NCBI GenBank assembly: GCA_000004985.1 | Contig: GG738886.1 | DNA length: 64,000 bases | From: Naegleria gruberi | Taxonomy: Eukaryota | Direction: 5' to 3' (one strand) | Shown here: positions 6,097 to 49,661 of the stretch, one piece after another | Layout of the letters: each line of letters begins with the position of its first letter | Position numbering within the stretch: position 1 is the first letter of the stretch | Made by a program: the position numbers and the translations under genes | The notes under the pieces: generated by a model | What the model was told of the DNA's origin: nothing | What the model saw: only the letters and a program-made list of their open reading frames with translations | The model's database searches: none

Positions 6097-7329
6097 TTAA
6101 TAATTTCTATAATGTTCTTCTCTCTGACTTGTCAAATCTCCATTTCTCATATCATTAACATATGTTTGTCTAATATTCTCCATCATACTTTCCTCAGTTG
6201 CCTTTACAATTTGTTCCTTTTCCAATATTTTCCTCTTTCTCAGATAAGATAATGAATCAGTTGTAGATTTTCTCAGATTTGAATTATCAGATATTGAGAG
6301 AATATTCTGAGTTTGGTCACCAACTTGAGTAGTTTGTAAAATTGAAAGTGAGTAAGAGTAAGCTTGAATGGACTGAAACACTGAGGGGACAATGTCCATT
6401 CTGACAGGTTCTAGATAGGTTGGAGGTTTTGATGGAAGGAATTTCTTGACTTGAATGACATTTCCATTTTGGGAAAGTGATTGTTTGTTGAGAGAATTGT
6501 TGGATTGCAAATTATTTTTGATAAATTGCAAGATTTTCAAACTATTTACATGATTTTTGAATTCCATTGGGAAAATGATCCAATCTTGAGCTGATTTCCA
6601 AATATGGAACATTATCAACATGAATCTGATAATTAATTTTTCATTTACAGATGCATCTCTCATTTCTAATACAGCACCTGATATAAATTCAGTGAATGAA
6701 CAATAGGATTCTGTAAATATTCTGTGAATTCTTTTTCTAACTTGACCACTAATATAATTGGAATATTCATTACTTTCCATATTTGTATAATTGCTATTAT
6801 TCTCGCAAATTACTTTACAACAAGTTATAATAATTTTAGAAAATAAATACAGCATGGTTGATTGCATATTGGATCCTTCATCAACTAGAAATATTATAGG
6901 AAACGGTGCTTGACCGCCATTTTTGGAATTATCAAAATATGTTAATAAGCTCTTCATCGTATTTTTAATCAAAATGGAATTATTCTTATCCGAATCATCC
7001 AAGCATATTATTCCACCTTGATATTCCTCCATATTTAACTGCTCTTTTGATTGAAAAATCACTTTCCGAACATCTTTCGTCTGAATATTCGAAACAGCTC
7101 CATTATTTCTTGAAGAATCCAACATACTTCTCCCCGAAACACCTTTCAATTGCTGTATAGTTGCTACCTGCAAACTAAACGGTATTTCACACTCATTATT
7201 TAACCAACCAGACAACTCCGAAACGTCCAACCTCGAAATTACAAATAATTTTGTTGAATTTCTCGAAGATTTCAAGTTTCCTTGCTGATCAGAAATGTTT
7301 CCTTGATTTGCTGTTGTGTTTGAAAGCAT
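6097..7329 (-). CDS. Hypothetical protein, 410 aa, single exon
   Basis: Long uninterrupted ORF with protist-like codon use. The ATG at 7329 is preceded by an A/T tract. Ser/Asn-rich; no family recognised. Confidence 0.5.
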   Translation of the reverse strand: MLSNTTANQGNISDQQGNLKSSRNSTKLFVISRLDVSELSGWLNNECEIPFSLQVATIQQLKGVSGRSMLDSSRNNGAVSNIQTKDVRKVIFQSKEQLNMEEYQGGIICLDDSDKNNSILIKNTMKSLLTYFDNSKNGGQAPFPIIFLVDEGSNMQSTMLYLFSKIIITCCKVICENNSNYTNMESNEYSNYISGQVRKRIHRIFTESYCSFTEFISGAVLEMRDASVNEKLIIRFMLIMFHIWKSAQDWIIFPMEFKNHVNSLKILQFIKNNLQSNNSLNKQSLSQNGNVIQVKKFLPSKPPTYLEPVRMDIVPSVFQSIQAYSYSLSILQTTQVGDQTQNILSISDNSNLRKSTTDSLSYLRKRKILEKEQIVKATEESMMENIRQTYVNDMRNGDLTSQREEHYRNY

Positions 7330-11764: not shown

Positions 11765-13090
11765 TTAAGGTAAGAAAGTACCAGTTGCTTTTGTTGTTTG
11801 TGCCTTGATTGATTCCAAGATTGGTGTTAATTTGGCAGCCAATTTAGAAGGTTCCTTTCCATTTGCCTTTTTAGATTCTTCAACCAAAATAACCATATCG
11901 ACAGGAATGGAGATGATTGGTACCATACCTTTAATCATTAAACTGGTCAAACTCATAATACCTGTAGCACCATTTGTCAATCCACCACGACTATCCAATC
12001 CTTGGTGTCTATGACCAATAAGGGCATCAACAAATTGTACAACTCCAATAGTGTTTGAGCCAACAGAAATGGTACGAGTATCAATGTATGGATCAGTAAC
12101 TCTGTACTCGTAAATCTTTTTAATCATATCATTGACATATTGAGTATCCTTTGCCAAGAGTTCTTGAATTGCCTTTGCAGATTTCTTGGCATGTTTCCAT
12201 TCGACAACTGAGGCAACAACACTTGTGGTTGTACCAGCTCCAACACATCCAAGACCAGCTCCTGTAGCCAAAAGCGAACCTCCAAGTGTAAAAGGAGCTG
12301 CTACGATACCTCCCACAATCAATGAAGCACCAACAATGTTTGTGGCAGTACCACCAACTTTGGCCTTTGCTGTTTTCTTTTGTTTCTTATCCAATGCACA
12401 GATCATATCTTCAAGCATTTTAATGATTTCCATACGTTTCTTGAGCCATTCTCTGGCAGATTCTTCAACAGCAACCAATCTCATTGCTTGTATCATGTTG
12501 TTATTAATTGGTGGAGGAACAACAGTGGTTGTTTGTTGCACTACAGAAACAGGTGTCATTGGTGAGACAGTCTTTTCAACAGTTGTGGTTGTTTGTTGTA
12601 CAAATTGACCAGTTGGAGTCATTGGTTGGCCGAATTGAGATTGCATCATTTGAGGTTGTTGTTCCATGTATTGAGGATTCATACTTGGTTGTTGTGGATA
12701 GCCATGTTGCATCATTTGAGGTTGACCATATTGTGGAGGTTGTTGGTACATTCCTTGCTGTTGTGGATAACCTTGTTGGTATTGTTGATATTGTGGTTGT
12801 TGCATACCTGGTTGTTGAGGTTGTTGAGGTTGTTGTTGGTATTGTTGTGGTTGCATACCTTGTTGTTGTGGATAGCCTTGTTGTGATTGCATCATTTGAG
12901 GTTGACCATACTGGGATTGTTGCATACCTTGTTGTTGTGGATACATTCCTTGTTGAGGTTGTTGTGGATAACCTTGTTGAGGAGGGTATTGTTGATATTG
13001 TGGTTGTTGGACTCCAGGTTGACCATATTGTGGAGGTTGTTGCATACCTGGTTGAGGAGTTTGTGGAGAGTATTGTTGTGGTTGGTGCAT
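11765..13090 (-). CDS. ApoL-like protein B with prion-like Q/P-rich N-terminal extension, 441 aa, single exon
   Basis: ATG at 13090 in acaaaacaaaATG context. N-terminal about 165 aa are Q/P/Y/G repeats ([13 protein letters not shown]...). This is followed by [74 protein letters not shown] and [27 protein letters not shown], paralogous to 8206..9210 and ApoL-like. Confidence 0.65.
12600..13085. repeat. Coding low-complexity CAA/CCA(TTG/TGG)-rich repeat encoding the Q/P-rich domain of ApoL-like B
   Basis: Degenerate tandem repeats of ttgttg/tggttg on the plus strand. They generate spurious antisense ORFs (12508..13143 etc.). Confidence 0.6.
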
Positions 13091-13564
13091 TTTGTTTTGT
13101 GTTGAAAAATTATATGACTCAAGTCTGTTATTTAGCCTGTTGATTCGTATGAATTCTTTGGTCCGTTGTAACATTCGGAATGTCATTGTCCAATAAAAAT
13201 ACAATGAGAAAGTGACAGAAACAAGTTGCAAAATACAATTGTGGCAATTCAAATATGATTTGTGTGTTAATTGCCAAAAAGTCGAATTATTGTCTTACGA
13301 AAGGAAACATATGCATGTTACTTGGTTGATTTGATCAAGAAAATTGGCAATTCACATCCAAATGTGATTTGATAACTTGTTTGTGCATTCTAAAAGTATT
13401 CTGTTGTATCAACCAAGTTGCTGTTGTAAAGTCTAACTACAGTCAGAGTTGGTTTTAATTGAAGTTTTCCCATAATCCACGTACAGATTTCTTTTTAATT
13501 GCATATGGCACTTCCAAAGCTCCTCTCAATACTTTCAGAATATCAATTCCCATACTAACAAGTT

Positions 13565-15763: not shown

Positions 15764-16423
15764 TTTATTAGAATGTTGAAGTAAATGTATGTAATGGAAC
15801 GTACCTAAAGCATCGTGATATTGAATGTTTTTTTTCAAAATTACTTTTTAATTTTTCTTTTATTTTTCAAATTTTAAAGTTTAACGGTAAATATGGGAGG
15901 TGCTGAGATTATTTTTGTTGGTAAAACCAAACAACGTTGCAATTCTCTAAAACCGATTCAATCATCATCTTGCTATACAATCACAAAGAACTCAATTCAA
16001 GGTTTAATTCATCATTAATTAAATTGAAATACCAAATGCAAGTTTTGATAGGACTTCCATTCAATGATTTACTGTTTCGACTTGCTATAGTAATCCTATA
16101 TCCCATTAAGGAATTTGGACCCCTCGTTTATCTCTCTTAATCCCATTCGGAAAGCAATCACCAAAACAACCTGAGAAACTAAGCTTTTGATCCTTAAGGA
16201 AAGCCTCAATTTCAAAAAAATTGGTGTAAGAAGAGACAGGGAGAGAATGCGATTCTTTTTGAAAAATCCAAATACTGGATATTATGATAAGGGGGCATCT
16301 ATATGTTTGTCCTTATCGGCCTTATTAGCAAGGTTGTTATCCTTATCATCATTATCTTTATTTTCAACATCAGGATTAATATCCTTAAAAAGTTGTGGTG
16401 ATGAGGAATTTTCTTCTATTAAG

Positions 16424-19400
16424 ATGCTATCATCATCACCGTCATCATTAACAAGTTTAAATAATTCTAATGGGATAAGAACAAGATCAAAGTATCATTC
16501 TTCATCATCCCTTGTACTTTTATTCATCATTATTTCAATGATACTAGTTTCATGTTTCATGTGTGAACCAATTCAGGCCATCTCTTGTAGTGGAATAGAT
16601 TCCAACGACCTCACTGCTTGCTCTGGGATGGGGACTTGTATTCAGGATGAAACATGCCAATGCCTTAACGGATATTCAGGCGCTAATTGTGAGTATGTGG
16701 AGTGTTTTGGAGTTACAAATGAACCTGGTAATGAGGTTTGCTCTCGTCACGGGCAGTGTTCATCACCAGACAATTGTCAATGCGATTCTGGGTATTATGG
16801 CTCTACATGTTCCATCACAACTTGTTTTGAGAAGTGGAGTAACTTGTCGAATAGCAACAACATTTGCTCTGGGCATGGTACTTGTTCATCATTGGACGTT
16901 TGTGAATGTAATGCTGGATACTTTGGTAGCGAATGTGAAAAGGATCTTTTCGCTGGGTACAAACTAATTAGTATTAGCCCAGTAGTGATAGCAAAAAATT
17001 CACCTGACAATGTTGAATTGAAAGCAAGTATTGCCCTTCCTTCAATGGTTCTATCCTCTGCCTACTCACACGATGGTTCACAACCTTTACCATTTGTTGT
17101 TTCCAACTCTACAACTTCTATTGTTATTACAGATACGGTAAATGATGCTTTTGGTCAATTGTTAGTTCAGGAAGCAGATAGAAAAGCAGGTGAACTTTAC
17201 AATCTTCCATGTGATTTTAACATTTCCAATCCCGACCAAGAACTCAATAGTTTGACCATCATTAGAAATGGTGGAGTCTATTGTTTTCCAAATGGTGTAA
17301 CTATAAGAGGACACACATTTATTATTGTCGGTACAGAAACAGTCCTTTTCAAATCTCCTTTTGTATATTATTATGGAGCTTCCTTTTACTATCTGGAATG
17401 TGCCTCCTATAGGAACGTTTTCTGGTTAACCTATGACCAAGGAGATAATGGAAACTTCTTTTCTGGAGATATTCATGGAACTGTTATTGGAATTTCTCCT
17501 TATCATGGAATTCAACTTTACGATAACTTGGTGGGGGCTGTATGGTACACTGGTGGAACAGATATGATTCTATTCGATGTGAATATTTTACCACCAATAA
17601 CCTTCAATTCAAATGAAAGTTTTAGTCGAGATGATTGCATGGAAACAAGTTGTTATGGAATTTCATTCCGATTGAATAATACTTGCTTTGGAAGAGGTCA
17701 TTGTGTGAAGAATGATACTTGTTTGTGCAATACGGATTCATACGGAAGTAATTGTTTAATTTCAATTTGTAATGGTGTCTACGGAAATGAAACCAATGTA
17801 TGTAGTGGTCATGGTGAATGCCAAAGTAAGGACAGTTGTGAGTGCGAAAGTGGTTATTATGGAAATTGGTGTGAATTGACCACATGTTTTGGAGTCCAGA
17901 ATGACCAGCCGAATACTTGTAATGGGCATGGATTGTGTTCCAAATTGGATACTTGTGAATGTGCTTCTGGTTTTGGATATGGTGGTTCAAGTTGTGAAAT
18001 TCCAATCTGTAATGGAACTATGGCTAATGAAAGTAGTGTTTGTCTATCAAGAGGTCATTGTGTCCAACCAAATATGTGTAGTTGCCAATCAAGTTATTCA
18101 GGGTCAAACTGTGAAATTGCTAATTGTTTTGGAATTATTTCAAATGACAGCTCAGTTTGTTCTGGTCATGGGTCTTGTAATTCTGTAGATACTTGCACTT
18201 GTTCCATTGAATACTACGGAGCCGATTGCTCACAATTTGATTGTTATGGCATTCAATCAGTGAATAGTTCTGTTTGTTATGGAAGAGGACAATGTATTAA
18301 TGTTAATACTTGTTCATGTTCACAAGGATACTATGGCAATGAATGTGAAATCTCCATGTGTGATGGTATTTTGGGCAATTCCTCCCAAGTTTGTTCTAGT
18401 TATGGACAATGCAAGGATACGGATGTGTGTGATTGCCAATTGGGCTATTTTGGTGTGTTTTGTAATGAAACAACATGTAATAGTATAGCAATGAATGACT
18501 CAACAGTATGTAATGGACAGGGAACTTGTTGGCCATTGGACACATGTGTTTGCTCCAATGGATATGATGGCTCTAATTGTCAAAATCCTATTTGCTTTGG
18601 AATTGTTTCCACTAATACCTCTGTTTGTGGAGGTCATGGAGTTTGTTCGCAACCAAATATTTGTCAATGCAACCAGGGATATTACGGATCCCAATGTGAA
18701 ATAGTCACCTGTTCTGGTATCATGTCAAATGGATCAACAGTGTGTTCAGGACAAGGGCAGTGTTCTGATATGGACATATGCCAATGCAACAACCATTACT
18801 ATGGATCTAATTGTGAAAAGTTTGATTGCTTTGGTGTATCCTCTCTCTTAAACACCTCATGCTCTGGTCATGGTACATGTCTTGATTACAATACTTGCCA
18901 ATGTTACTCTGATTATTATGGAAATAATTGTGATGTTACCAAATGTTATGGTATTTTCAGTAATTCATCCAATGTTTGTTCATCTAAGGGAAGTTGCCAT
19001 GTACGAGATACTTGTATCTGTTCGAATAATTACCACGGTTCTTATTGTAACATAACAAGTTGTAATGGAGTTTATTCTAATGATGCTTCAGTTTGTTCCG
19101 GTCATGGTTCATGTATTGGGTACGACACTTGTCAATGTTTGAGCGATTATTCTGGAAGTAATTGTCAAGGAGAAATAGTTGACCCATTTGCTGGATTTAG
19201 AATTATTTCAGATTCTTCAGTTTCAATTTCTATTGATTATTTCCTGACAGATTGGCAACCAGTTTTGCAATCCTATACTCGTTACTATGCCTCAAGTTTA
19301 CTTCTTAAAAGTATTTCCTATTTGGATTCAAATATTCAATATCTTCCACATTCGAGTGCAGTTATTCTAAACAGCACAAGTGCACAGGGCATCAATATTG

Positions 19401-22400
19401 TCAACAAGATGAAAACCATCAAGTCCCAGTTATTGGCTTCATTAACCTGCACTAAAACTTACACAAACACTAACTCTCCAAATACTTTTATAATCAAACA
19501 TGGAGGTGTAATTTGTTTCACAGGAGGAATGACATTCGGGCCAGAAAGAACTATTATCATTGTGGGAACAGAGCCTGTCATATTCAAACTCCCATCCTTG
19601 CAGTATAGTGCTCTTAATATTGTTTTTTTGGAATGTGCCTCATATAGAAACTTTTTCTGGATTTTGGATTCAAATAGTTTTATTAAGGGAGCAGATAAAA
19701 CAAAGAATTATCAACCACCAATTCATGGAACATTTATTCAACTCTCTGGAACTATTTCTTTGAGAGGTTACCTTGCAGGTAGTGTATGTGCTTCGAACAT
19801 CAATACTCTTCTCCACGAAGTCACATTTTATGATCCAACCACTTTTGACCCTTTCCAAAGTGTCACTTCACAATGTAATTACACCCTCTGTTACAACATT
19901 CTATCAAATAATCAATCAGTGTGTTCAGGTAAAGGTAATTGTTCTGATTACAACACTTGTGTTTGTAATACGGATAGTTATGGATCTGATTGTTCTTTAT
20001 TTAAGTGTAACGGAATTTTGAGTTCAAACTCAACTTTTGTTTGTAATGGAAGAGGTAAATGTGTAGGGCCAGATGTCTGTTCCTGTAATCCAGGTTATTA
20101 TGGAGATTTTTGTGAGCTGACCACATGTAATGGAATTGAAAATACCTCGCCTCTTGTTTGTAATGGAAGAGGTGCCTGTAATCATTTCAATAGCTGTTCC
20201 TGTAGCTCTACATTTGGGTATGGTGGATCAGATTGCGATATTCCAATTTGCTATCAAAAACTTGCAACCAATCGTTTAGTTTGTAGCTCAAGAGGTGATT
20301 GCTTGGGACCAAATGTTTGTAATTGTACCGAAACTTATCTTGGTGATAATTGTCAACTGACCACTTGTGCTGATATACTTTCAAACTCTTCTCTTGTTTG
20401 TTCAGGCTTTGGATCATGTGTTGGCTATAACAATTGCACCTGTCATACAGGTTTCTATGGAGAAACTTGTGCAGAATATGATTGTTTCGGAGTTAATAAG
20501 AATAATCCAAATGTTTGCTCTTCAAAAGGCGAATGTATTACTGTTAATAACTGCACATGTCAAGATGGCTTTTTGGGTAATAATTGTTCCTACACTACTT
20601 GCTTTGGAGTAAGAAGTGATTCGCCTACAGTTTGTAATTCGAAAGGTTCCTGTAGAGCCAAAGATGTTTGTGAATGTTGGAATGGATATTTCGGAAGTAA
20701 TTGTACTCTGACAAGTTGTGGAGGGATCTATTCAAATGATAGCTCTGTGTGTAATGGACATGGTTCTTGTTGGCCAGCGGAAACCTGCACTTGTTTATCT
20801 CAATATGGATATACAGGTCAATTGTGTGAAATTCCAATTTGTTATACCATAGCAGCTAGTGATCCTTTAACCTGTTCTTCTCATGGCTCCTGTGTTGGTG
20901 TCAATACATGTGAGTGCCAAGCAAATTATACTGGATCCAAGTGTCAAGTTACATCATGTCAAGGAATTCTATCAAACGGCTCACTTGTTTGTTCTGGGCA
21001 TGGTTCATGTATTGAACATGATAATTGTACATGCCTAGCTGGTTACTTTGATACCGCCTGTAATCAATTCACATGTAATGGAACCAACTCCCAAGACAGC
21101 TCAGTTTGCTCTGGAAAAGGAAGTTGCGATTCATATAATAATTGTTCTTGTCAAGCGGGCTATTATGGACCTAATTGTGAAAAGACAATGTGTAATAACA
21201 TTTTGAGTGATAATCCATCTGTGTGTACATCTCGTGGTAATTGTATTGCCCCAGAAGTTTGCAGTTGTAATGAGACTTATTTTGGTACTAATTGTGAGTT
21301 GACTACTTGCAATGGAACTGTTTCAAATAGCAGCTCGGTATGTTCAGGATCAGGAGTTTGTTGGCCATTCGATACCTGCACTTGTTACTCTGACTTGGTC
21401 AGAGAATTCGAAGGTCAATGGTGTGAAAAACGTTTGTGGGATCCTTTCGCTGGATATCGAATGGTATCTCACAATGGTTTAGTTTACCATTTTGATGATA
21501 ACAACAATTTCTACACTCCTGATATTCATACCAATACTAGATATTATCGTTCAAGTATGATTTTAGATATACTTACAAAGATAACACCTACACTCAATTA
21601 CACATCTGATAATGGAGCTCACATTGATAGTGTTAATACTCCCAAAGCATCAGCCTTGGCTGCACTTATGAAAAAGAAAGGTAATTCCATGTGGACACTT
21701 CCATGTACTAAAACAGTTAACAATTCAAGTGATTTGCCATGGATTAGTAAGAGTGAAATTATGATTCGTCACGGAGGTGTTTTCTGTTTCAATATTGAAG
21801 CTTCTTTTCACAACAATATAACCATTATCATAGTTGGAGCTGAACCTGTTGTTATGAAAGTTCCTTCAATTCAATACTCTGCAGTCAACTTTGTATTTGC
21901 AGAATGTGCTTCTTATAGAAATTTGTTTTGGTTTATCACAAGTTATAATCCAAGTTTCATTCAAGGAGGAAATAGAGGGACTGGATATGAGCCTCCAATT
22001 TATGGAACTTTCTTCCCAACCTCAGGTGGTTCCTTCCAACTTGCTGGTCCTTTTGCAGGAAGTGTTTGGGTAACCGGTAATGCATGGACTGTTTTTATTG
22101 ATGTTACTGTTTATCCACCATTGTCAACTGATCCATATGAACCAACAGTTGGTCAATTTTGTAATTATACTCAATGTTTCAATGTTAAATCTAATTTGAA
22201 TACTACATGTTCCGGTAGAGGTCAGTGCATTGATTATAATACATGTGTTTGCAATGCCGATGCTTATGGAGTTGATTGTTCAATCTCCAAGTGTAATGGC
22301 ACATTTAGTAATGTATCAACTGTTTGTAATGGACATGGTTCATGTATCGCTAAAGATACTTGCCAATGTAATACAGGATACTATGGAGAATGGTGTCAAT

Positions 22401-25400
22401 ATACAACATGTGGAGGAATTGAAAGCACTTCACCATTGACTTGTAGAGAAAGAGGTACTTGTATTGCCTATAATCAATGTTCTTGTAATGTCACCAAAGG
22501 ATACAATGGTAATGACTGTGAAATTCCTTATTGTAACAACATTTTGGGAAACACTTCAACTGTTTGCAGTGCTCATGGTTCTTGTGAATTGCCAAACACG
22601 TGCAATTGTTCAGCAAACTATTTTGGAACATTTTGCCAATATACCACTTGTGCAGGCATTGAAACATATAATTCATCAGTTTGTATTGGTAGAGGTCAAT
22701 GTACACTTTACAATAATTGTACTTGTAACTCACCTTATTATGGATCCAATTGTGAACAATTCAAGTGTTTTGGAGTGAATAACAACTCTAGTACTGTTTG
22801 TTCTGGAAGAGGTATCTGTACAGATTATAACACCTGTGTTTGTAATGCTGGATATTTAGGATCGAATTGTGAAATTTCATCCTGTTTTGGAATTTTAAGT
22901 AATGTGTCCCTTGTTTGTAAAGCTCATGGAGTTTGTGTAGCTACGAATACTTGTGTCTGTGCTGCTAATTACATGTCCAGTGATTGTTCTGTGACTTCCT
23001 GTTCAGGAATCAATTCAACTTGGTCTTCAGTATGTCATGGAAGAGGTTCATGTTGGCCTTACAATACATGTAATTGTAATGCCAAATTGGGTTACACTGG
23101 AAATGATTGTAATGAGCCAATGTGTGACGGTCTTACAAACTCTGATCCTTATGTTTGTAGCGGAAGAGGAGGTACTTGTGTTTCTCCTAATCTATGTGTC
23201 TGTAACGATCCATCAAAATATTTTGGTAAATTGTGTGAATACACCTATTGTCGAGGTGTTCCAACCAATCTTACTGACACAGCACTCTTCTGTTCTGGAA
23301 ATGGTATTTGTACAGACTATAATTACTGTTATTGTTTTAGTGGATATACAGGAACTGAGTGTGAGTTGGATATGTTTGCAGGTTACAGATTCGTCACCAA
23401 TAAGAATGTTTATGTTTTGAAGAATCAGATTTATTACTTGCCTGCCAATATCGCCATAGGCCCAATGTTGAGTGCTGCTGGGCAGAAGACATACCTTCCT
23501 TACCAACAAGCAGTGAAAACCAATTTGAGAGTTGATGCTACATTGTTGAATGAGCTCCAAATGAGAGCTATGGGTTTAAGGTATAATTTCTTCCCTTGTG
23601 AACATTATATCAAGGACGCTTCAGTATTTGGAAAGAACATAGAATTGAGGGGAGGTGTGTACTGCATTCAGAATCCATGGACAATTGATGGACATAACTT
23701 TACCGTAATTGGTAAAAAACGAACCATTTTTACACTTCCACAGCTGATATATAAATCAGCAAAGTTCACCTACTATGAATGTGCATCTTATAGAGATGTA
23801 ATATTTTATGCCGGTGAAACTACTGGCTACAGCAATTTCACAGGACCTATCGATGCAACCATTTTTGTAAATTCACCAGGTGCAGCAGATTACTACGTGA
23901 ACGGTGATATTAATGGAGCAATCTATATATTTGGAAAACTTGGATCTAACGATGCTCCACCTACTGGTACTGTCTACACTACAGATATGAAATTTATTGC
24001 ACCATACACATTTGATCCAGCTGTTAGATACATTGAATCCAAGTGTAATTATTTCACATGTTTTGGAATTGGCTCTAATATCAATACTACTTGTTCTGGA
24101 AAAGGAAAATGCATAGGCATTGATACTTGCTCATGTATTTCTGGGGCGTATGGGCCTGATTGTTCTCTCAGAATGTGTAATGGAACTTTAGGAAACTTTT
24201 CCAATGTTTGCAGTGGTCATGGTTCATGTATTTCCACTGATATTTGTCAATGTAATGCAGGATTTTATGGGCAATGGTGCCAATACACAAAGTGTTATGG
24301 ATTAGAAAATACTTCTCCAACTGTTTGTTCAGGAAGAGGTTCTTGCTTGTCTGAAAATAATTGTATTTGTAATTCTACTTATGGATACGAAGGTTCACAA
24401 TGTGAAACTCCAATTTGTGGTGGACAATTGGGTATTTGTGCTAGTTCAAGCAGAGGAAATTGTACAGCTCCTGACACTTGCTCATGTTTGGATCATTATA
24501 GTGGTCAATTTTGCCAATGGACTACTTGTAATAGCGTACCTTCTAATTCATCAAGTGTTTGTTCTGGAAGAGGAATATGTGCTGCATATAATACTTGTCA
24601 ATGTAAAGCAGGATATATTGGATCGATCTGTGAAAAGGATGTCTTTGCTGGATACAAATTAATTAGTAACAAGGCAGTTCTTTTAGCAAAGAATTCAAGA
24701 GCTAGCTCTGTGCTGGCAGCAAGTATTGCCCTTCCTTCAATGACAATTAGACCACCAACATTTTTAAATCCAGATAAGGTCTATCCATATGTTGCAAGTG
24801 GTAAGTCTGTAATTACAAAGCCAACCGATTCCTACTATCAAACTTTAATGACCGAATTATCAAAGAAATTCGATGAGCTCATGTCCGCTCCTTGTGACTA
24901 TGTAATTTCAAAACCAGATACTGAAATGGGTCAGAAAATTCTCATTGAGCATGGTGGCGTCTATTGTTTCCAGAATGGTTGGAACATTAATGGTCAAAAG
25001 TTTACAATTGTTGGAACTGAGCCAGTTATTTTCAAAGCTCCATATATCAAGTATTCTGGAGCTAACTTTGTATATTTGAAGTGTGCTTCATATAGAAACG
25101 TGTTTTGGGTCACTCAATACTACAACTTGACTGGCAGAGTAAATTGGGTTAACAGTAATTCATTTTCTGGAACAGTTCATGGCACAATAGTTGCTAGATA
25201 TGGGTATGATTATTTAGTTTCCGATGATATACAAGGAGCTATTTGGTTTTATACTCAAGAAGATGGATATATCACTTTGAAAGATGCTAAACTTACAACA
25301 CCTCCAACATTTGATCCTTACATGCCATATGTTACTGGATCTTGTGATACTTATACTTGTTTTGGTATTGATCCAACTTCGAATATGAGTTGCTCAGGTA

Positions 25401-28400
25401 GAGGTGTCTGTAAAGATTACAATACATGTACATGTCAAGATGATTCCTATGGTATTGATTGTTCCATTTCTAAATGTTATGGAATTTTTGGAAATGTGTC
25501 AATTGTTTGTTCCTCTCATGGTAATTGTACATCAAAGGATACATGTACATGTAGTGAAGGATACTTTGGAGACTTGTGTCAATACACTTCATGTGCTGGC
25601 ATTCCAAATAACTCTACAAATGTCTGTAACCAGAGAGGTGTTTGTAATATTTACAATTCTTGCACTTGTAACACAACTTTGGGTTATGATGGATCGAATT
25701 GTCATGTTCCAATATGTAATCATCTAGTAGGAACATGTACAGATCTATTCAGAGGTAACTGTACTGCTCCTAATGCATGTTCATGTGAAAATCATTATTA
25801 TGGGCCTTGGTGTGAAAAGACAACTTGTGGTGGATTTGAGTCAACTAATACACAATCTGTTTGTAATGGAAGGGGTAATTGTACAGCTTATGAAAAGTGT
25901 ACCTGTTTACATGGATATGCAGGAGCATTTTGTGAAGAGTATAGTTGTTTTGGAGTTGTGAGAACTCTTCCGTCAACTTGCTCTGGAAGAGGAGCTTGTT
26001 CTTCAATTGACCAATGTGATTGTAGCGCAAATTATTATGGATCTAATTGTGAAATTAGCAAGTGTAATGGTAAATTTGGAAATGAGTCTACAGTGTGTAG
26101 TTCTAATGGTCAGTGTATTGAGACAAATATTTGTAATTGTTCAGAGCATTATTATGGAAATTGGTGCGAAAAGACGACTTGTTTTGGAGTTGCTTCCAAT
26201 GAGTCAAATGTTTGTTCACATAGAGGACAATGTAAAGCATTCAATACTTGCCAATGCAATCAAAATTACTTTGGAGATAATTGCGAGTTGACTACTTGTA
26301 ATAATCTTGCTTCAAACTCTGGTTTGGCTTGCAATTTGGTTGGCAATTGTACAGATTACAATACATGTGTTTGTCCTTATGGATATACTGGTTCATGGTG
26401 TGAACAGACTACTTGCTTTGGTGTAGCCACAAGTTCTCCAAGTGTTTGTAATGGACATGGTAATTGTACAACTATGGATATGTGTAGTTGTGATCCTAAA
26501 TATGGTTATGGTGGAAGTAATTGTAACATTACAACATGTGATGGAGAATTGTCTACCTCTTCTCAGGTCTGTAACTCACATGGTACATGTATTGGACCAA
26601 ATCAATGTCAATGTGCTCCACATTATATTGGTGACAATTGTCAAGTGACAACTTGTTTTGGAATTCTGTACAATGACTCTAGTGTTTGCTCAGGAAAGGG
26701 TTCTTGTGATGGATTCGATAACTGTACATGTGAACTTGGTTATTCTGGAGCAGAATGCGACCAGTACACATGCAGTGGAGTTTTCAATTCAAATCCCTTA
26801 GTTTGTTTCGGTAGAGGAAACTGTACTGAATATGATATCTGTGTTTGTGAAGCAAATGCCTTTGATTTTGATTGTTCTGGTGTTTCTTGTAATGGATTTA
26901 TCAATGCAGATCCAATGGCTTGTTCTTCACATGGTTCATGTACCCAAAATCAATAGTGTAATTGCTCTGAAAATTATCATGGTGAATGGTGTGAGCTCAC
27001 AACTTGTAATGGAATTGATTCGAATAGTACTGAAGCATGTTCTGGAAGAGGAAGATGTGTAGATTATAATAGTTGTGTCTGTTCGAATGGATACTATGGG
27101 GATGACTGTCAGGATTACAATTGTTATGGTATTTCACATTTTTCAAATTTGACATGTTCCGGATATGGTAATTGTTCCGATATCGACACATGTGAATGTT
27201 TTGAAGATTCTATTGGTTTAGATTGTTCCGTCAACGTTTGCAATGGTCTTCCTATGAATTCCTCATTAGTTTGTTCAGGACTAGGCAGTTGCACTCGACC
27301 AAATTATTGCAATTGTTCAGATAACTATTTTGGAAGTAATTGTGAATGGACCACATGTTATTCCATCGCATCATTCTCTCCATCCACATGTTCTGGAAGA
27401 GGAAATTGCTCTGATTTTGATAAGTGTATATGTAATTCTGATACATTTGGTTCCGATTGCTCTCTCTTCAAATGCAACCACACCCTTGGCAATGAAACTC
27501 AAGTTTGTAGTGGACGAGGTTCATGTATTGGCACTGATGAGTGCAATTGCACTGAGAATTATCACGGAGAGTTTTGTGAATTTACTGAATGTTTCTCTCA
27601 ACTTTCTAATGAAAGTTCAGTTTGCTCTGGAAAAGGAAAATGCATTGAGTTCAATAATTGTTCATGCCAAGATGGATATTTCGATCAAGATTGTTCTCAA
27701 TTCCAATGTAATGATACCTTCAGCAATGAAACCACAGTTTGCTCCTCAAGAGGTTTTTGCATTGATTCGAACAAGTGCAATTGCTCAGAAAATTACTTTG
27801 GACTGAATTGTGAATTGAGCATTTGCTTTACAATTCTTTCTAATGACAGCAGAGTTTGTTCTAGAAGAGGAATTTGTGTTGATTATCAAAACTGCTCATG
27901 TTATGATGGATTTTATGGTGAAAGTTGTGAGTTTGCTGTAAGTGCAGTGAACAATCAATCAAATTCCACTCAATTGAATAATCAAACTATTGATTCCAGT
28001 AATGTAACCATGAATAATAATTCATCGGTGGTTTTTAACAATACTGATAACAGTACAAATACTGATAATAGTAGTGTTGTGGTCACTAATCACACAATTT
28101 CAGAAGACAATACAACACGTTCTAATTCAAATGGAACTGTTTATAATAACAATAGTACAGACCTTTCTAATGAAACAATTTCAAATAATGGAACAGTTTC
28201 TGCTAACGCAAATGTTACTATCCCTGACAATTCTACTTCTTCCACTAATCAAACTGTTTCTCCAAGTACTGATTCATCAAATGGAACTGTTTCCAATAAT
28301 ACTGTAAATGCAACAGCTTCTGATAATACTACCACTGATAATTCCAACATTACAATTTCGGATAATACCACTTCACCTGGATCCAATAATCAAACTATTT

Positions 28401-31400
28401 CTCCAAGTGTTGATTCATCAAATGGAACGATTTCAAATAACACTAATCCTTCGGTAGTTTCGAACAGCTCAACTGTTTCAAACTCTTCTTTTACTAACGG
28501 AACAGTTTCCAACAGCACAGTCACTTCAAATAGTAGCACAATTACTTATAATACCACAATTTCATCAAACGAAACAATTTCGGTTAATGTAACAAGCAAC
28601 ACATCAAAAATTACAAATTCAACCTCAATCTTGAACGAAACTGTTCCTGTAATGCCTGAGCCTGATGTTGTGGTTGCTTTGCCGGTTGCAATTATAAAAC
28701 GAATGAGCTCGAACGTGTTCAGCTCATGCGATGATATTAGAGTGGATGGCTCGCAAAGTTTCTCACAAGATTCGACCTATCTTGACTATTATTGGAATTT
28801 ATTGGAAGCAAGCTCTTTGACTAGTTTACAAAGTTTGCCTAATAGTCCAATCATTGTCATTGACTCTACATTGAAGCCAGGACAATATGTTGTTTCACTA
28901 AAAGTTGGAAATGGAAGAAATAGTTCAGTGAACTATTCGAAACCTTTCACCAAGTCAGCAAATCCACTTCCAAAGATTTATATTGCTAATTCTTTGATTG
29001 AAAAGTATGGAAATCAATTCCCAGTAACCATCAAGAAAGTTATCACAGAATCAACTTGCCAAAAGGAAAAATCAGTAATTAGTTGGAGTCAATTAAGTGG
29101 ACCAACAGTTAAATACTCAATTGACAGTTTCAGTAATCTTGCTATTGCCTCATTGACTACCTATGGTTTCCATACTTACATCTTCCAAGTTTCAGCTCAT
29201 TACCCTTCAAATCCATTAGAAAGAGTTTCTGCCAATGTAACACTTGTTACAAAATCTCCTGAATTGCAACTTGAATTATTGACAACTGATGCAAATTCTA
29301 ATTACACAACTATTGTAATTGGATACACAGATCCAGAGAGTGCTTATAATACTCTTTCTGAGGAATGGAAATGGACTTGTTTGAATAATACGAATCCAAG
29401 TTTAATTTCCTTCTTGGAATTGATTTCTAAAAACAAGCAAACTGAAGTTAGATTTGATGGTTCATCACTATTTCGTCAAAACATACCTCGCTCTATTGAA
29501 CTATCTTTAAGAATTTCCAAGTCTGATAGAACAATCTCCAAGTCAATTATAGTTTACTTTGGATTGGTTCCACCTATTGTAAATATTATTTCAGTAGAAC
29601 CAAGCACTTTGTACGTTCTTCCTGGAGAACCTCTCAGTATTCAGACATTAGTCACCAAAGGAAATGTTAATGTTACATTGAATGGACAAGTTGTTGAAGT
29701 ATCCGATCAACAGCCAACCTTGGATGTTGACACTAAACTATTAGAACAAGGTTCTGAAAATACAATTACAATCACATCGACTGATCCAGTGACTGGAATG
29801 TCTAGCTCTTCAAGCTATACTTTCAAAGTTGCTACCTATCCGAAACCATGTGCTTGTTTCATTTCTCCTTTAAGTGGAATTGCATTAGAAAGCGATTTTG
29901 AATTCTATTGTACGAATTGTAAAAATTCAGAAAATAATATTGACTATCGATATGGATTTATAGATGACAGATCCGAAACAAGAATTCTATTATTCGATTC
30001 TGGTGAAATTTATGCTTCCAAGTTGCCATCTCCATTTTCTGGAAATACTGTCAAATGTTTCTTTGATATTGTCGATACAGAGACAGGTGCTTTTACAACA
30101 GTTTACAAAAATGTCACTATAGAAAAACCTCTCGTTACAAAAGTCGAACAAGTTCAAGGACTAGTCGAATCATGGACTATTGTGGGATCCAACTATTTCA
30201 GTAATGGAGATTTCAGTAAGAGTATTTATCAATGTGCTTCAACTTCAAGAACTGATTCAGTTTTATTGAGACAGATATTAGGAAATGAATATTTAGAAAG
30301 ATCAGAAAGTATTGAATGTGAGAATGGTGTTGATATTTCAGGAGTGTGTAAATGTCATGATGGATATATTGGTAAACATTGTGATAAGGCGATTAGTGAC
30401 TTTTCTAATATTCAAGGTACTAAATTGCAAGTACTCAGAGAAATGGTGACCATTGCCAATAGCACTGGTGAAATGAATAATCAATATTTGTCATTGCTGT
30501 CATTTGCCATTGATTCGATACTTGTCAATTATCAATATTTAGATACAAATACTATATCTGAATCAATGTATACTTTGAATATGTTTTTGGAATATTCCTT
30601 ATCTGATGAAAGTTTGAGATTACCAACCGGGGTTGATAAGTTATTAGAATCTAGTCAATATTCAACATTTAATTACATTACTGATAAGCAATACCTTACT
30701 GATCAAACGTCAAATGCCTTAAAATTATTGAAATCTCTCAAATTGTCATCTCAGTTACAAGCAAGATCTGTTTCCATGTCAAATGCCAAGAGAAACATTA
30801 AGGGATCATTCTTTAGTATAGTTTTGGGTAAGAGCTTGTTAGCTGATCATCAAAATAATATTCAAGATCCCCATTCATCTTCGTCCATAAGTATGGAGAA
30901 TGGTTTCTTTGCTTATACTGCAAGATCTAAAGTTTCATCTATCAAAAAGCCATATATTTACATCCTGTCTGTGACTGATGACATTTACTCATTGGGAACT
31001 AAACTCAAAGTTGTGGAAAAGAATAACAATGTTCAAAAGGTTTCAAATTTGGTTTCTCCAATAGTTTCTGTAGATTTTGTGGATGTTGCCACTACCATGA
31101 ATCCAACAAAAATAATTTATTCGATTCCAATTAATTTGAATGGATCAACATTTGAATTGAGAAGAGGAACTTTTGATTTATCAGTCAAGACACTGGACCA
31201 GTATTGTAAAAACTTTGATGAAGGTTCTATTAAAGTTCTTTCAGACTGTACCTTAATTTCATTGACTGCAACACATGCCAAATGTCAATGCTCCAAATTT
31301 ACAAATGTATTTGTTATTGAAACAACGACCATTTCAACTTATTCCTACACCTACTTGGCAGCTATTGGTTTCTCTCTTGTAGCTGTCTGTTCCATTGGAA

Positions 31401-31924
31401 CCTTGGTAATTCTCTCAGTTTGCGTATGGTGGAAATTCAAGAAACCTAAACTTTCCAAAAAGAGAAGTCTTGTCTTTACGGATGCCTCTGAAAATGAGAT
31501 TCAACTCAGAATTCAAGAAATTATTCTCGGAGACCATACATACAGTAATTCAGAAACTAACTCTGATGATTCATTGATTATTGATGTGATAGATGATTGT
31601 CCATCAGGAGGAAGCAGTGGAACAGGTTCAAATAATGGAAGAATGAGAAGTTATTCAATGCAAGAAAGACCAACCACAATGATGAGTTCATCCTCTCCAA
31701 GAGGTGGAGTTGGTGCCAATATACTTTCATCTTCACCAAGAGGAACAAGAAATCGTTCATCTTCAGTTGCTCCATTGATTATTCAGGAAAGCCATGAATT
31801 GGATTCGAATGCATCAAGTTCTGATGAATTATTAAAGAATCATTCAGAGGGAGGTGTTAAACGATCTGGAAGTGGTATTTGGGATTTGAGAGAAGATGGC
31901 TTTCTAGAACATGAAAAATTTTAA
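16424..31924 (+). CDS. Giant (about 5,170 aa if read through) type-I membrane protein with about 100 tenascin/laminin-type EGF repeats, a mucin-like stalk, a GPS-like motif and a single C-terminal TM. Single exon; interrupted by one in-frame TAG at 26954..26956 (ORF-track ORFs 16187..26956 and 27149..31924 share one frame).
   Basis: A putative signal peptide follows the ATG at 16424 (LVLLFIIISMILVSCFMC). The repeat is C-S-G-x-G-x-C-x(5)-C-x-C-x(3)-Y-x-G-x-x-C-E with NxS/T sequons throughout. A non-EGF module (FAGYKLIS...HGGVYCF...IVGTEPVIFK...ECASYRNVFW) recurs 5x at nt about 16943, 19190, 21440, 23380 and 24640. An N/S/T-rich stalk spans 27950..28650. TM is YLAAIGFSLVAVCSIGTLVILSVCVWW (about 31345..31430), then a Ser-rich tail. 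Confidence 0.7.
27950..28650 (+). repeat. Low-complexity Asn/Ser/Thr-rich segment (dense N-glycosylation sequons) encoding the mucin-like stalk of the giant protein
   Basis: NQSNSTQLNNQTIDSSNVTMNNNSSVVFNNTDNSTNTDNSS...; imperfect repeats (SNGTVSNNT... recurs). Confidence 0.5.
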
Positions 31925-39923: not shown

Positions 39924-40033
39924 ATTTGTAAATAAATTGAAAAGTAATTTAATTGGCTGTCATATTTCTCATAATCATGATACTGTCATTGAGATACATT
40001 GAAAACAATTTAATTGTAAATATTATTAAAAAA

Positions 40034-42457
40034 ATGGCTAAACATCCACCTTTAAAGATCAAAACACAGCATCGGAATCCCGAAGAAGTGAAAGCACTCT
40101 TTTCCGAGAATATTAAATACATTGAATCATTTCTAGATAAATTTAACATTTCACCACAAGAATCTGATTCAATAGTAGATAATTTATTTGAAAAAAACCT
40201 TTCATTGCCTCTCTTTGTTTCAATTTATGATGATACCAATAGCAAGATGAAATTTAGTAATATATTGACCTTTTTGAAATATTTATTAACTGTTGGATCT
40301 TCTGCAAAAGTTACAGGAGAGGATATTACCGAATTGATTGTAAAAGTTTCACCTTGCATTGAGTTTATTCAATATGGACTAGATAATGATATTGGAAATA
40401 GTTTTGATAAATTATTGAGTGGAAATGAACGAATTGATTTTTCATCCGATAAAATTGTTGAGGAATGGCTCGTATCAACTTACCATATCTACTTTTGCAT
40501 GATTAAACAATTCATAGCTACAGGTAAACTTTCTTTGAAAATAATTCAATATTTTAGGAAAGCACTTCTTCATTTACTAGTTATTTTGAGACATATTGGT
40601 AATAGAAAAAGAATGGCAATAATGAATGGAGACACTGATTTCAACCTTTCATTCTCAGAAAAGTCATTTATGGTTTTATGTTCTAATTTACTCAAAAAGG
40701 GATTTAAACATGGTTTTTTGCAATCCAATTATGCTCATCAAAGAGTTTTCTTGGAGGGTATCTACTATTGTTTTGATAATAGGATGAATTATGCCAAGTT
40801 TCTACACACCTTGTTAGTGTCTACAGAAAAGAGAGGATTTAGAACGATGCGTTCCTTAATAAGAAATGATATTCAAGATATTGGAGAATTGACTGGAAAT
40901 GATATTATTCCACATGGAATAAGTAAGGGTGACACTGCCACAAATGTTGCTACTAGAGCGGTCAAATTTCTATGTTCTCTGTATGGTAAAATGAAGGATA
41001 TAAATATGACACTACTTCCAGTTCTCCTTGAATTCCTACCTTTCGTGTTGAAAGTTTTGAATTGGACCTTTATCCCAGCATTTTTAAAAGAAGTTGCAAC
41101 ACAAGTTTGTGCAGTACTCGTAGGAACATTTGAACATGCAGCAACACCAACAGTGGAGAATGAACATTATCTCAACATTATCAGAGACGCCCTTCCATTC
41201 CTATTTAACTATGTTTCAACAAAGATTCAAGACCTTTCTAGTGGAACGCAAGTACTGTGCTATAATATGATTATTTGGATTGCTAAAACACGAACTTCTT
41301 TCACTATCGAACAATTGACTCCACTGCTAGAGATTTATGAACCTAAATTAATAAGTAAGAAAGAGTACTTGGAAATGATCAAATCTGTATGGGTTCGTAC
41401 CGTTGGTAGAGAACATGTTCTAAATCCATTTTTTATGAAACGATTGTCAGAAATGTCAGAAATTGAAATTCTACATGAGGAAGCCTTGCCAAGAGTGAAA
41501 ATGATTATGCATCTTTTGAATATATTTTCACAATCTATTAATAATTACATTGATTTAAAAGTAGTGGCCGCTTTAACCATTAAGAAAATTGAGGAATTTC
41601 TGAACAAGACTGAAAGCACTACTTTACAGGACTTTGATATGAGCAATACCTTCTGTAAAATTTTAATCCATTGTATTGATAACATTACAGATGTGGAGAA
41701 TATCTTTCCAATTCTACACGACCTCATTAAGGTAGCCATCAGTACTGAGCATATTCATCGAACTATCAGTTCTTCTGATATTTCTGATTTGAATGATTTT
41801 ATCTTTAGACTTTTCAAATATGAAGAGGGATACTTTTTAGATTTGGTTCGTTTATTGCATGACAGAGGTTTATTGGAAAAGTGTTGCAAGGGAGAGGAAT
41901 CAGGTGAACTCATTAATAACCTTATACTGCCCTATGTACTTGAACAATCAAAAGGTGGTGAGAGTCGTGTTCCAAGTCAAGCTACTTGGGTACTCATCAG
42001 TTTAGTTGTCTCTGATATGGTATCTTCAAGAAAACTAGTCGAAAGGATCAAGCATCACATTATAGAGAGCTGTTCCTTCCTTCGTGATGGCCCTACAAAG
42101 TTTGACTTTTTACAGAGACCTTACTACAAGGCCTTACTGAGTCTTGCCACTTTAATCTTTGCATACTATCCAGAGGAGATGATTGACTATCTACTTCCAA
42201 ATAGTCAGGTTCTATTTTCCTCTGCACTTACATCACCTGACACTAGCAATTATTTCCCACTATTGTACAATTTTACATTGAGTGCTGCAGAGTATTTTTT
42301 GGATAATGATTTACTTTCTAAAAGTCCTGAGATGTTACTTTCACTTCAAGTGCTCTTTACATTTGTTCATTACATGCCACTGAATGTATCCAATATTATT
42401 CTAGTACGTCGAGTTGTGAATAAGTTTGATTTGAGTGTTAGGGAATTTTCTTCATAG
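40034..42457 (+). CDS. Large alpha-helical hypothetical protein, about 807 aa, single exon
   Basis: ATG at 40034 (aaaaaaATGgct). The ORF track's upstream extension starts at a non-ATG codon. No motif recognised; possibly HEAT/ARM-like. Confidence 0.55.
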   Translation: MAKHPPLKIKTQHRNPEEVKALFSENIKYIESFLDKFNISPQESDSIVDNLFEKNLSLPLFVSIYDDTNSKMKFSNILTFLKYLLTVGSSAKVTGEDITELIVKVSPCIEFIQYGLDNDIGNSFDKLLSGNERIDFSSDKIVEEWLVSTYHIYFCMIKQFIATGKLSLKIIQYFRKALLHLLVILRHIGNRKRMAIMNGDTDFNLSFSEKSFMVLCSNLLKKGFKHGFLQSNYAHQRVFLEGIYYCFDNRMNYAKFLHTLLVSTEKRGFRTMRSLIRNDIQDIGELTGNDIIPHGISKGDTATNVATRAVKFLCSLYGKMKDINMTLLPVLLEFLPFVLKVLNWTFIPAFLKEVATQVCAVLVGTFEHAATPTVENEHYLNIIRDALPFLFNYVSTKIQDLSSGTQVLCYNMIIWIAKTRTSFTIEQLTPLLEIYEPKLISKKEYLEMIKSVWVRTVGREHVLNPFFMKRLSEMSEIEILHEEALPRVKMIMHLLNIFSQSINNYIDLKVVAALTIKKIEEFLNKTESTTLQDFDMSNTFCKILIHCIDNITDVENIFPILHDLIKVAISTEHIHRTISSSDISDLNDFIFRLFKYEEGYFLDLVRLLHDRGLLEKCCKGEESGELINNLILPYVLEQSKGGESRVPSQATWVLISLVVSDMVSSRKLVERIKHHIIESCSFLRDGPTKFDFLQRPYYKALLSLATLIFAYYPEEMIDYLLPNSQVLFSSALTSPDTSNYFPLLYNFTLSAAEYFLDNDLLSKSPEMLLSLQVLFTFVHYMPLNVSNIILVRRVVNKFDLSVREFSS

Positions 42458-43912: not shown

Positions 43913-44321
43913 ATTATTAACATGTAAATATTGCTTACAATTTGCGTCTTTTTCTTATTGAAATCAGAAATTAGGTTCATTTTAGTGCCAATTACCAATA
44001 AGATCTGATAATCAGATCGAAATCTGAACACTTAATACATTTCTGATCACAGAAAGGGCTGTGAAAGGTTTACCTTCAGTCCAAGCCACCATAATAAGGC
44101 CATCAATTTTTCAACCTTATTTTTACTCTCCGTTTCTCTTGTTGAAACTTCTTAACAATTTTCATAATTACTACCCTATCAGTGCCAAGTCAATATCCAT
44201 TCTTAAACGGGTCCTCCTTTCCATTTTACAGAACTCGTTATTATTAATATTGTACTTTATTTAGAAAGTGGAATTGCTCAATAGGGACGAGGTACATTCA
44301 TTTGCCAAACCCTTAAAAAGA

Positions 44322-49200: not shown

Positions 49201-49661
49201 TAAAGACAGAAAATAAGCTCCTCACCGAAGAAATTACCTCCCTCAAAGAGCAATTACAAATCTCCTCCAACGATAATGCCTCCAGCTCAATTAACAATCA
49301 ACGAGAAATTGAAAAGCTCAAAGAAGAAAATGCAGATGCCCAACGCAGAATTACCAAGCTCAAAGAAGTTTTCCAAAAGAGAATTAACGAATTTAGAAAA
49401 TCAATCTATCTCTTATTTGGTTTCAGAGTTGATGTCATTGAAAATAATCGATTCAGATTGAGCAGCATGTATGCAGAATCTCCAGAAGATTATCTCATCT
49501 TTGAAAGTGATGGAAATGCCATGAAACTCTTAAACTCTGAATTTGCTTGTTCACTAGAGGAAAAATCCATGAGATTTTTAAAGAATTTCAGATCCATTCC
49601 AGGATTTTTATGTTCCATTACTTTGGATTTATTCAACAAGCAAACTGTTTTCACCCAATAA
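46276..49661 (+). CDS. mad1: Mitotic spindle assembly checkpoint protein MAD1 orthologue; exons 46276..46449 and 46509..49661, 59-nt intron 46450..46508 (GTAGGT..TCTAG)
   Basis: About 600 aa of coiled coil. The C-terminal domain KLKEVFQKRINEFRKSIYLLFGFRVDVIENNRFRLSSMYAESPEDYLIFES...IPGFLCSITLDLFNKQTVF closely matches the recalled metazoan MAD1 C-terminus (KEVFQ.KIQEFRKACYTLTGYQIDI...YRLTSLYAEHPGDCLIF...IPAFLSSLTLELFSRQTV). Confidence 0.8.

Follow-up and report, generated by a model that had tools for sequence, protein, structure and literature searches.

One gene on the plus strand of Naegleria gruberi contig GG738886.1 (GCA_000004985.1) appears to encode a giant cell-surface receptor of unusual architecture. 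Between positions 16424 and 31924 of the 64,000-nucleotide (nt) stretch that we analyzed (the window, whose positions are used as coordinates throughout), a single reading frame brings together five modules resembling the DUF3494 family, a long rod of EGF repeats and a REJ-type receptor region, and we consider it probable that all three belong to one gene whose single internal TAG codon reflects an allele, a haplotype or a base error. By threshold the protein qualifies for both the EGF and the REJ family; its DUF3494 membership comes from profile and fold comparison, without a match to the Pfam model. Both domain families (DUF3494 and REJ) are known and the protein is already in databases, such that the advance lies in annotation and architecture and not in a new type of system; the new element is the unusual architecture, and the unusual host, for DUF3494.

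The frame runs from 16187 to 31924 with one stop inside, and is listed as two open reading frames in the same phase (16187..26956 and 27149..31924). Counted from its ATG (16424) through its TAA (31922-31924), it comprises 5,166 codons, the sole interruption being the TAG at 26954-26956; the original prediction of a single exon was correct as to the continuous frame but missed this codon. Exact matching identifies the locus as NAEGRDRAFT_51207 (XP_002674088/EFC41344/D2VPE3; 4,968 residues, public label "predicted protein"). This public protein (P0001) equals the translation of the window minus 68 N-terminal residues and minus nt 26567-26956, and in beginning at an internal Met, 68 residues in, it loses the hydrophobic signal sequence. 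The start codon at 16424 was chosen by comparison with an environmental homologue (P0002) and without transcript evidence; the P0002 N-terminus is colinear from the hydrophobic segment onward (48% identity, E 2e-153). A further 79 codons are open upstream of this ATG (16187-16423), with a second in-frame ATG at 16248. We infer a type I cell-surface glycoprotein, heavily N-glycosylated, whose N-terminus reads as follows.

16424-16579, plus strand: start codon and N-terminal signal sequence (translation: polar lead of ~30 residues, hydrophobic LVLLFIIISMILVSCFMC, then EPIQA)

The five modules and the DUF3494 family

Five Cys-poor modules interrupt the EGF array, as originally predicted, each start marked by a FAGY motif (nt 16949, 19187, 21446, 23375 and 24644). 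A six-frame scan of the window with a module hidden Markov model (HMM) recovers exactly these five, at E ~1e-70 to 1e-85.

16949-17650, plus strand: module 1, DUF3494-like (HMM E 1.5e-81)
19187-19888, plus strand: module 2, DUF3494-like (HMM E 1.9e-75)
21446-22174, plus strand: module 3, DUF3494-like (HMM E 1.8e-77)
23375-24058, plus strand: module 4, DUF3494-like (HMM E 7.4e-70)
24644-25357, plus strand: module 5, DUF3494-like (the copy used for the structure model)

Each module is ~230 residues in size, not the ~150 first proposed, and the Cys-free gaps between EGF blocks span 232-250 residues. Modules 1 and 5, whose starts had been picked out as nearly identical, are the most similar pair (44% amino acid identity, with ASIALPSM in both); the module of P0002 is nearest to module 1 (49%), module 5 being almost equal (46%).

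DUF3494 is the most widespread ice-binding protein family, and its fold is a triangular beta-helix packed on one long alpha-helix. Judged by profile comparison and a predicted structure, the five modules are diverged DUF3494/ice-binding-like members and not a new fold. An exhaustive HMM search of 1.84 billion protein cluster representatives, using a profile of the five modules, returned nine proteins: the gene itself, P0002, three N. gruberi paralogues (XP_002668922, XP_002673599 and XP_002669085, or P0003-P0005), a further N. gruberi protein (XP_002675978, or P0008/P0010), P0007, P0006 and P0009. Two of these provide the connection to the known family: the prokaryotic P0007 (E 4.8e-7), in which Pfam recognizes four Ice_binding (PF11999) domains at 393 bits, and XP_002675978 (E 1.4e-5), which scores 44 bits on Pfam Ice_binding against a cut-off of 28.7. 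P0006 and P0009 were matched through many short partial stretches only. The multiple alignment of the modules with their relatives is colinear from first to last strand, and shares the motifs G-V-Y-C, I-F-K, (G/C)-A-x-x-x-N-V-F-W and F-x-G-T-I.

XP_002675978 is a protein of 685 residues that combines a PhoPQ_related (PhoPQ-activated pathogenicity-related) domain with a less diverged DUF3494 domain and, unlike the gene described here, is devoid of EGF, REJ or transmembrane (TM) elements. At the level of sequence, its domain bridges the EGF-linked modules to the canonical DUF3494 family.

As a control, we built a profile from 12 EGF-linked Naegleria modules with the genuine ice-binding sequences left out. 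Against the PDB this profile matched the DUF3494 structures 6bg8, 6a8k, 7ehk and 7bwx (E 7e-5 to 1.4e-3) and gave no other significant match, and hhalign aligned it over 148 columns with the four Ice_binding domains of P0007 (probability 95.6%, E 1.2e-8); profile homology between the module and accepted members of the family is hence found. Other searches were blank: the five-module profile alone matched no PDB sequence, a word-indexed protein search with the five- or 12-module alignment gave no match (though that collection contains members of the query), and a scan of JGI metagenomes with the module found no relative.

The AlphaFold2 model of module 5 (predicted local distance difference test (pLDDT) 85.7, predicted template modeling score (pTM) 0.85) consists of beta-strands and a long helix at residues 68-86, and displays the IBP-1 fold, i.e., a right-handed, discontinuous beta-helix flanked by one long alpha-helix. 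A Foldseek comparison of this model with the PDB places DUF3494 ice-binding proteins in all of the top 31 positions (E 2.5e-7 to 2e-4), the next match following at E 0.08; identity of the module to known ice-binding proteins is 10-17%.

We weighed these results against the idea of a new domain with no relation to known families, for which the absence of a Pfam match at E<=1 and the blank result of the five-module profile alone against PDB sequences could both be cited. Four independent lines nevertheless connect the module with DUF3494 (the five-module profile run library-wide, the profile of Naegleria modules only run on the PDB, the hhalign comparison and the searches by fold), making a new domain very improbable; as far as profiles and predicted folds reach, i.e., as far as computation reaches, that reading is refuted. 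The original prediction had not recognized the module as a known domain, and its assignment to a diverged DUF3494 by profile and fold is an outcome that the prediction had itself named as refuting, although the explanation is not a trivial one.

Relative to accepted DUF3494 proteins (PF11999; IBPv 5UYT, AnpIBP 7BWX, ColAFP 3WP9, SfIBP_1 6BG8), the modules are too diverged for the Pfam model, and the FAGY start and a third conserved Cys (ECASYR) are specific to Naegleria. They also differ in setting, being present as five copies interspersed in a eukaryotic EGF array within a transmembrane protein.

The EGF array and the membrane-proximal region

By a six-Cys pattern parse the array contains 66 EGFs, in place of the "about 100" of the original prediction, and a single EGF-like unit lies apart from it, close to the membrane. 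The pattern C-x10-C-x5-C-x5-C-x-C-x8-C with a linker of four residues gives a 39-residue period, and 45 of the 66 repeats carry an N-glycan sequon in loop 1. Pfam matches are strong (EGF_2 488.6 bits, EGF_TEN 488.7, EGF_Teneurin 349.6; PF07974/PF25024/PF23106, E ~1e-107 to 1e-150), and the array accordingly shows both the six-Cys pattern and the above-threshold match that define the EGF family. The repeats fall into six blocks.

16586-16936, plus strand: EGF block 0, 3 repeats (six-Cys parse; Pfam EGF_2/EGF_TEN)
17651-19165, plus strand: EGF block 1, 13 repeats (six-Cys parse, block comparison)
19889-21424, plus strand: EGF block 2, 13 repeats (in colinear order with those of block 1, the best diagonal being offset 0 at a mean score of 113)
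22175-23362, plus strand: EGF block 3, 10 repeats (six-Cys parse, block comparison)
24059-24631, plus strand: EGF block 4, 5 repeats, probably the ancestral five-EGF unit (diagonals: offset 0 with block 3, scoring 128.6, and secondary ones at +/-5 and +/-10)
25358-27928, plus strand: EGF block 5, 22 repeats (offset 17 against block 2 scores 116.2)

The modules and EGFs together form a higher-order repeat that is real and ancient. EGFs of the same index in different blocks have a mean BLOSUM score of 108, compared with 86.5 for other between-block pairs, a value reached in none of 5,000 within-block permutations (p<1/5000), and offset 0 is the best diagonal in eight of ten block pairs. Autocorrelation is dominated by the 39-residue/117-nt period, with extra peaks at 747-761, 1099 and 1508 residues, none of them multiples of 39 (those at 747-761 and 1508 lie ~3-5 standard deviations over background). 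The permutation test and these peaks together bear out the internally duplicated [module + EGFs] superunit that the original prediction had put forward, if not its regularity: a fivefold unit of ~13 EGFs plus module holds for only two superunits (the blocks contain 3/13/13/10/5/22 repeats), and the proposed ~2.2-kb period describes the first two module-to-module spacings (2238 and 2259 nt) but not the others (1929 and 1269 nt). The duplications are old, because the modules retain only 27-44% amino acid and 57-62% DNA identity to one another; TRF detected no tandem array at the DNA level, since the repeats are too diverged for it.

Two features, the secondary diagonals (+/-5 and +/-10) and a block 4 of exactly five EGFs, suggest an ancestral unit of one module plus ~5 EGFs, which would later have gained and lost EGFs. 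EGFs 18-22 of block 5 (27356-27928) resemble the first five post-module EGFs of blocks 2 and 3 (the diagonal at offset 17 averages 116, against a background of 88), and by this likeness may represent a superunit whose DUF3494 module was lost or was never there.

The array is followed by a stalk, a REJ domain and the membrane-spanning region.

27929-28648, plus strand: S/N/T-rich N-glycan stalk (39 sequons in residues 3840-4160)
28514-30220, plus strand: REJ domain (PF02010; Pfam E 1.2e-14, 54.2 bits against a cut-off of 25)
30305-30391, plus strand: membrane-proximal EGF-like unit (sub-threshold EGF_laminin and EGF_Teneurin; kept in the paralogues)
30383-31345, plus strand: helical-then-beta region with a GPS-like motif at its end (C-x-C-S-K-F-T-N-V-F at 31283-31312)
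31346-31432, plus strand: single transmembrane helix (YTYLAAIGFSLVAVCSIGTLVILSVCVWW, then KFKKPK)
31433-31924, plus strand: Ser-rich cytoplasmic tail of 163 residues and TAA (translation)

The glycan-dense stalk, the one transmembrane helix and the Ser-rich tail had all been anticipated, and are borne out here; sequon density in the stalk is 12 per 100 residues, against 2.7 per 100 in the EGF region. The REJ match covers profile positions 30-445 of 452, enough to assign the domain to that family, and REJ is also present in paralogues P0003 and P0004. In the region that follows, Pfam GPS scores 14-15 bits (cut-off 22.5) in the same place in three of four paralogues, and a PDB profile search of 30383-31345 returned only the GPS region of ADGRL3 (latrophilin-3), at E 0.12. 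An AlphaFold model of the membrane-proximal region from four sequences was unusable (pLDDT 40), its five long helices followed by strands being what a GAIN domain would give. A GPS/GAIN-like element before the membrane is plausible on this basis, but not established.

Domain content sets the protein apart from the receptor types that it recalls, and its classification as a tenascin, teneurin, adhesion G-protein-coupled receptor (GPCR) or polycystin-1 proper was rejected on that ground. A Pfam scan of 27998-31921 (E<=1) gave no PLAT or PKD_channel match, and only one hydrophobic helix is present; no seven-transmembrane part, as would mark an adhesion GPCR, follows the GPS-like motif, which leads instead into the single helix. 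FN3 and fibrinogen are likewise missing from the Pfam scans (16424-26953 at E<=0.01; the five modules and 27998-31921 at E<=1), leaving the "tenascin-type" label of the original prediction only loosely right, i.e., supported by the EGF_2, EGF_TEN and EGF_Teneurin matches.

Among the closest in plan are polycystin-1, PKDREJ and the sea-urchin suREJ proteins, suREJ1 above all, with which the product shares a large glycosylated ectodomain, adhesive modules and an above-threshold REJ. suREJ1 comprises EGF and lectin modules, REJ, GPS and one transmembrane helix; like it, the protein described here has a Cys-rich GPS-like motif directly before the membrane and, unlike PKD1, a single helix across it. 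It departs from the polycystin/REJ receptors in that no PKD/Ig repeats, C-type lectin, PLAT or 11-TM channel-like part are reported, in its sub-threshold GPS with the cleavage-site His absent, and in having DUF3494 and teneurin-type EGFs as its adhesive modules. With teneurins and tenascins it has in common the head-to-tail six-Cys EGFs (matching EGF_TEN, EGF_Teneurin and EGF_2), but it carries no FN3, fibrinogen, YD-repeat or Tox-GHH domain, its EGFs have a longer loop 1, of 10 residues, that is usually glycosylated, and 66 of them are present in one protein. Teneurins are moreover type II membrane proteins, whereas the orientation predicted here is type I.

The paralogues P0003-P0005 carry the module, EGFs, REJ, the GPS-like motif and the transmembrane helix, with one to three modules, far fewer EGFs and lengths of 1,810-2,641 residues; identity across the REJ-to-TM cassette is 35-44%. 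P0002 comes from a metagenome (ENA ERZ929261, contig k127_130209 of 3,859 nt, gene 565-2229), is 48% identical to the N-terminal 500 residues and follows the same order (signal sequence, three EGFs, module, EGFs), and this colinearity points to a related organism with the same N-terminal layout. The last part of the product called there is not EGF sequence, suggesting that the contig has an intron or a frame problem at this gene.

The in-frame TAG and the public intron

The TAG codon and the intron of the public model end at the same base.

26954-26956, plus strand: in-frame TAG, in the position immediately preceding Cys4 of EGF number 58
26567-26956, plus strand: "intron" of the public model (GT..AG, 390 nt, in frame), containing ~3.3 intact EGFs and having TAG as its last codon

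The public model would be correct if 26567-26956 were a true 390-nt intron, in line with its GT..AG ends and preserved frame. The segment, however, encodes those 3.3 EGFs with their Cys residues in register and no stop before the final codon (129 open codons, with a chance of ~8e-5 at this base composition); EGFs 55-58 keep all six Cys across it. Splicing would leave a hybrid EGF lacking two Cys (CDGELSTSSQ|CNCSENYHGEWC), and the putative acceptor AG is no more than the final two bases of the stop codon. A true intron is quite improbable on these grounds. Because the EGFs stay in register, the codons stay open and splicing would produce a hybrid repeat, the public intron looks like an annotation workaround for a premature stop.

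Other ways around the codon were tried and set aside. Alternative introns that would remove whole EGFs (117, 234 or 351 nt ending at 26956) have no GT at any start. Reassignment of TAG as a sense codon was rejected, there being one TAG in 5,166 codons and no other TAA or TGA before the terminal TAA, a judgment based on this gene alone; division into two separate genes was rejected in that the downstream part takes up the same EGF partway through the repeat and lacks a separate signal sequence. Exact look-ups of the open reading frames ending at TAG, from either candidate ATG, returned no record.

The simplest reading of the codon is a nonsense allele of very recent origin, a variant of one haplotype or a base error, and not an intron or a boundary between two genes. 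Downstream of it 1,655 codons are open with all domain patterns intact (chance ~4e-53), including REJ, the transmembrane helix and every EGF Cys, so that any inactivation would be extremely recent. Seven of the nine single-base changes from TAG give a sense codon, and six of the seven residues so encoded (Q, K, S, Y, L and E) are present at the same position in 14 of the 65 other EGFs.

A freshly inactivated gene, in which the TAG is real on every NEG-M haplotype and the full-length receptor is no longer made, would leave at most a 3,510-residue secreted EGF/DUF3494 fragment, a loss that may be tolerable in long-term laboratory culture. Such a state would fit a TAG lying in frame, amid an otherwise perfect EGF, with T as the following base and no known read-through context evident, as well as the need of the public annotators for an invented intron to pass it. 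We regard it as unlikely, though less so than a true intron, given the long open and domain-intact stretch beyond the codon and the ease with which one base change restores a residue used at that position elsewhere in the array; in either case it concerns the state of an allele and not the identity of the gene. The public gene model is corrected at two points, a missing signal peptide and an invented intron that hid a premature stop.

Proposed role and the neighboring genes

The most likely role, which we infer from sequence and from analogy with known receptors, is that of an adhesion or receptor protein displaying beta-helix binding modules on an EGF rod. The glycosylated EGF array would form a long rod, presenting the flat faces of the five beta-helices as sites for binding ligands or surfaces; these sites would recognize polymers of the substrate, of prey bacteria or of cell surfaces, and not ice. 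The REJ, GPS-like and transmembrane region would then couple binding or tension to the cell, as in receptors of the polycystin-1/suREJ type. N. gruberi is a bacterivorous soil amoeba, which makes prey and substrate polymers natural candidates for the ligand, and the coupling of adhesion or tension to the cell is suggested by the resemblance of the membrane-proximal part to the single-TM members of the polycystin/suREJ group. The original prediction of an adhesion or recognition molecule was in this respect a reasonable guess; its aggregation context does not apply, since N. gruberi is a non-aggregating heterolobosean, and dictyostelid-style expression data from aggregation or development are inapplicable for the same reason.

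A typical ice-binding site is a flat face rich in small Thr, Ser and Ala residues, and N. gruberi is a temperate amoeba of soil and freshwater, a habitat that counts against ice binding. Were the modules functional ice-binding domains all the same, the protein would serve in freeze protection or as an ice adhesin on the cell surface, comparable to the bacterial SfIBP_1. The fold and family do match proteins with proven ice binding, and 6bg8, the DUF3494 domain of a long repetitive-stalk protein, is a proposed ice adhesin according to a title cited in a 2024 survey (PMC11645318). Set against this are the 10-17% identity to known ice-binding proteins, beta-strands with many bulky aromatic and charged residues, and the origin of most family members in ice-free habitats, their ligands not being known (PMC11645318). 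With an ice-free host as a further difference from the eukaryotic members described so far, ice binding by these modules is unlikely from their sequence, and we rate an ice-binding role as quite improbable, marginally more so than a true intron.

The survey is also informative on how the family is to be read: ice-binding activity is no requirement for DUF3494 membership, bacterial members from ice-free habitats are thought to bind some other surface, and icy habitats are given as the source of every eukaryotic DUF3494 protein yet found (PMC11645318). In the present case, five DUF3494 copies stand in a metazoan-style adhesion-receptor architecture in a temperate amoeboflagellate, and the domain recurs in at least three paralogues; architecture, host and paralogues therefore suggest a surface-binding role other than ice. 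We put forward as a tentative possibility, somewhat short of an even chance, that heteroloboseans recruited a DUF3494 beta-helix, probably bacterial, as the repeated ligand-binding head of REJ/GPS-type receptors for a non-ice use (prey, substrate or polysaccharide). If true, this would be a eukaryotic, ice-free and membrane-anchored use of DUF3494, and would offer a tractable system for the ligands of the very large non-ice branch. The finding itself puts a family of REJ-type receptors in a lineage distant from animals.

Several observations weigh against the main reading, that of one receptor gene with DUF3494 modules. None of the five modules matches the Pfam Ice_binding model (PF11999, gathering 28.7 bits) even at E<=1, and the module of paralogue P0003 is the sole Naegleria EGF-linked module to score on it, at a sub-threshold 18.1 bits. 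The AlphaFold model of module 5 may have been biased by its input alignment, in which five of the sequences were genuine Ice_binding members. The GPS/GAIN match is sub-threshold, and the HL/T cleavage triad reads KF/T, such that autoproteolysis is doubtful without the His. Given the TAG, this copy may not be made full-length in the sequenced strain; a search with 273 residues spanning the codon found only distant EGF proteins (30-38% identity), leaving it without an independent sequence. A search of a literature library, lastly, found no paper on this protein and none linking Naegleria with DUF3494, ice binding, REJ or GAIN.

Elsewhere in the window, four open reading frames of 250-830 residues have no Pfam match (6100-7329, minus strand; 39953-42454, 44268-46124 and 56748-58670, plus strand). 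Three other neighbors can be assigned. At 11768-13252 (minus strand), a reading frame of 495 residues scores 38.6 bits (cut-off 25.9; E 1.1e-9) with the Pfam model for apolipoprotein L (ApoL), a family mainly discussed in animals. The product of 46623-49658 (plus strand) is a mitotic checkpoint protein of the MAD1 type (E 7e-56 with Pfam MAD); that of 51459-53261 (minus strand) contains four DUF4116 repeats (E 8e-49).

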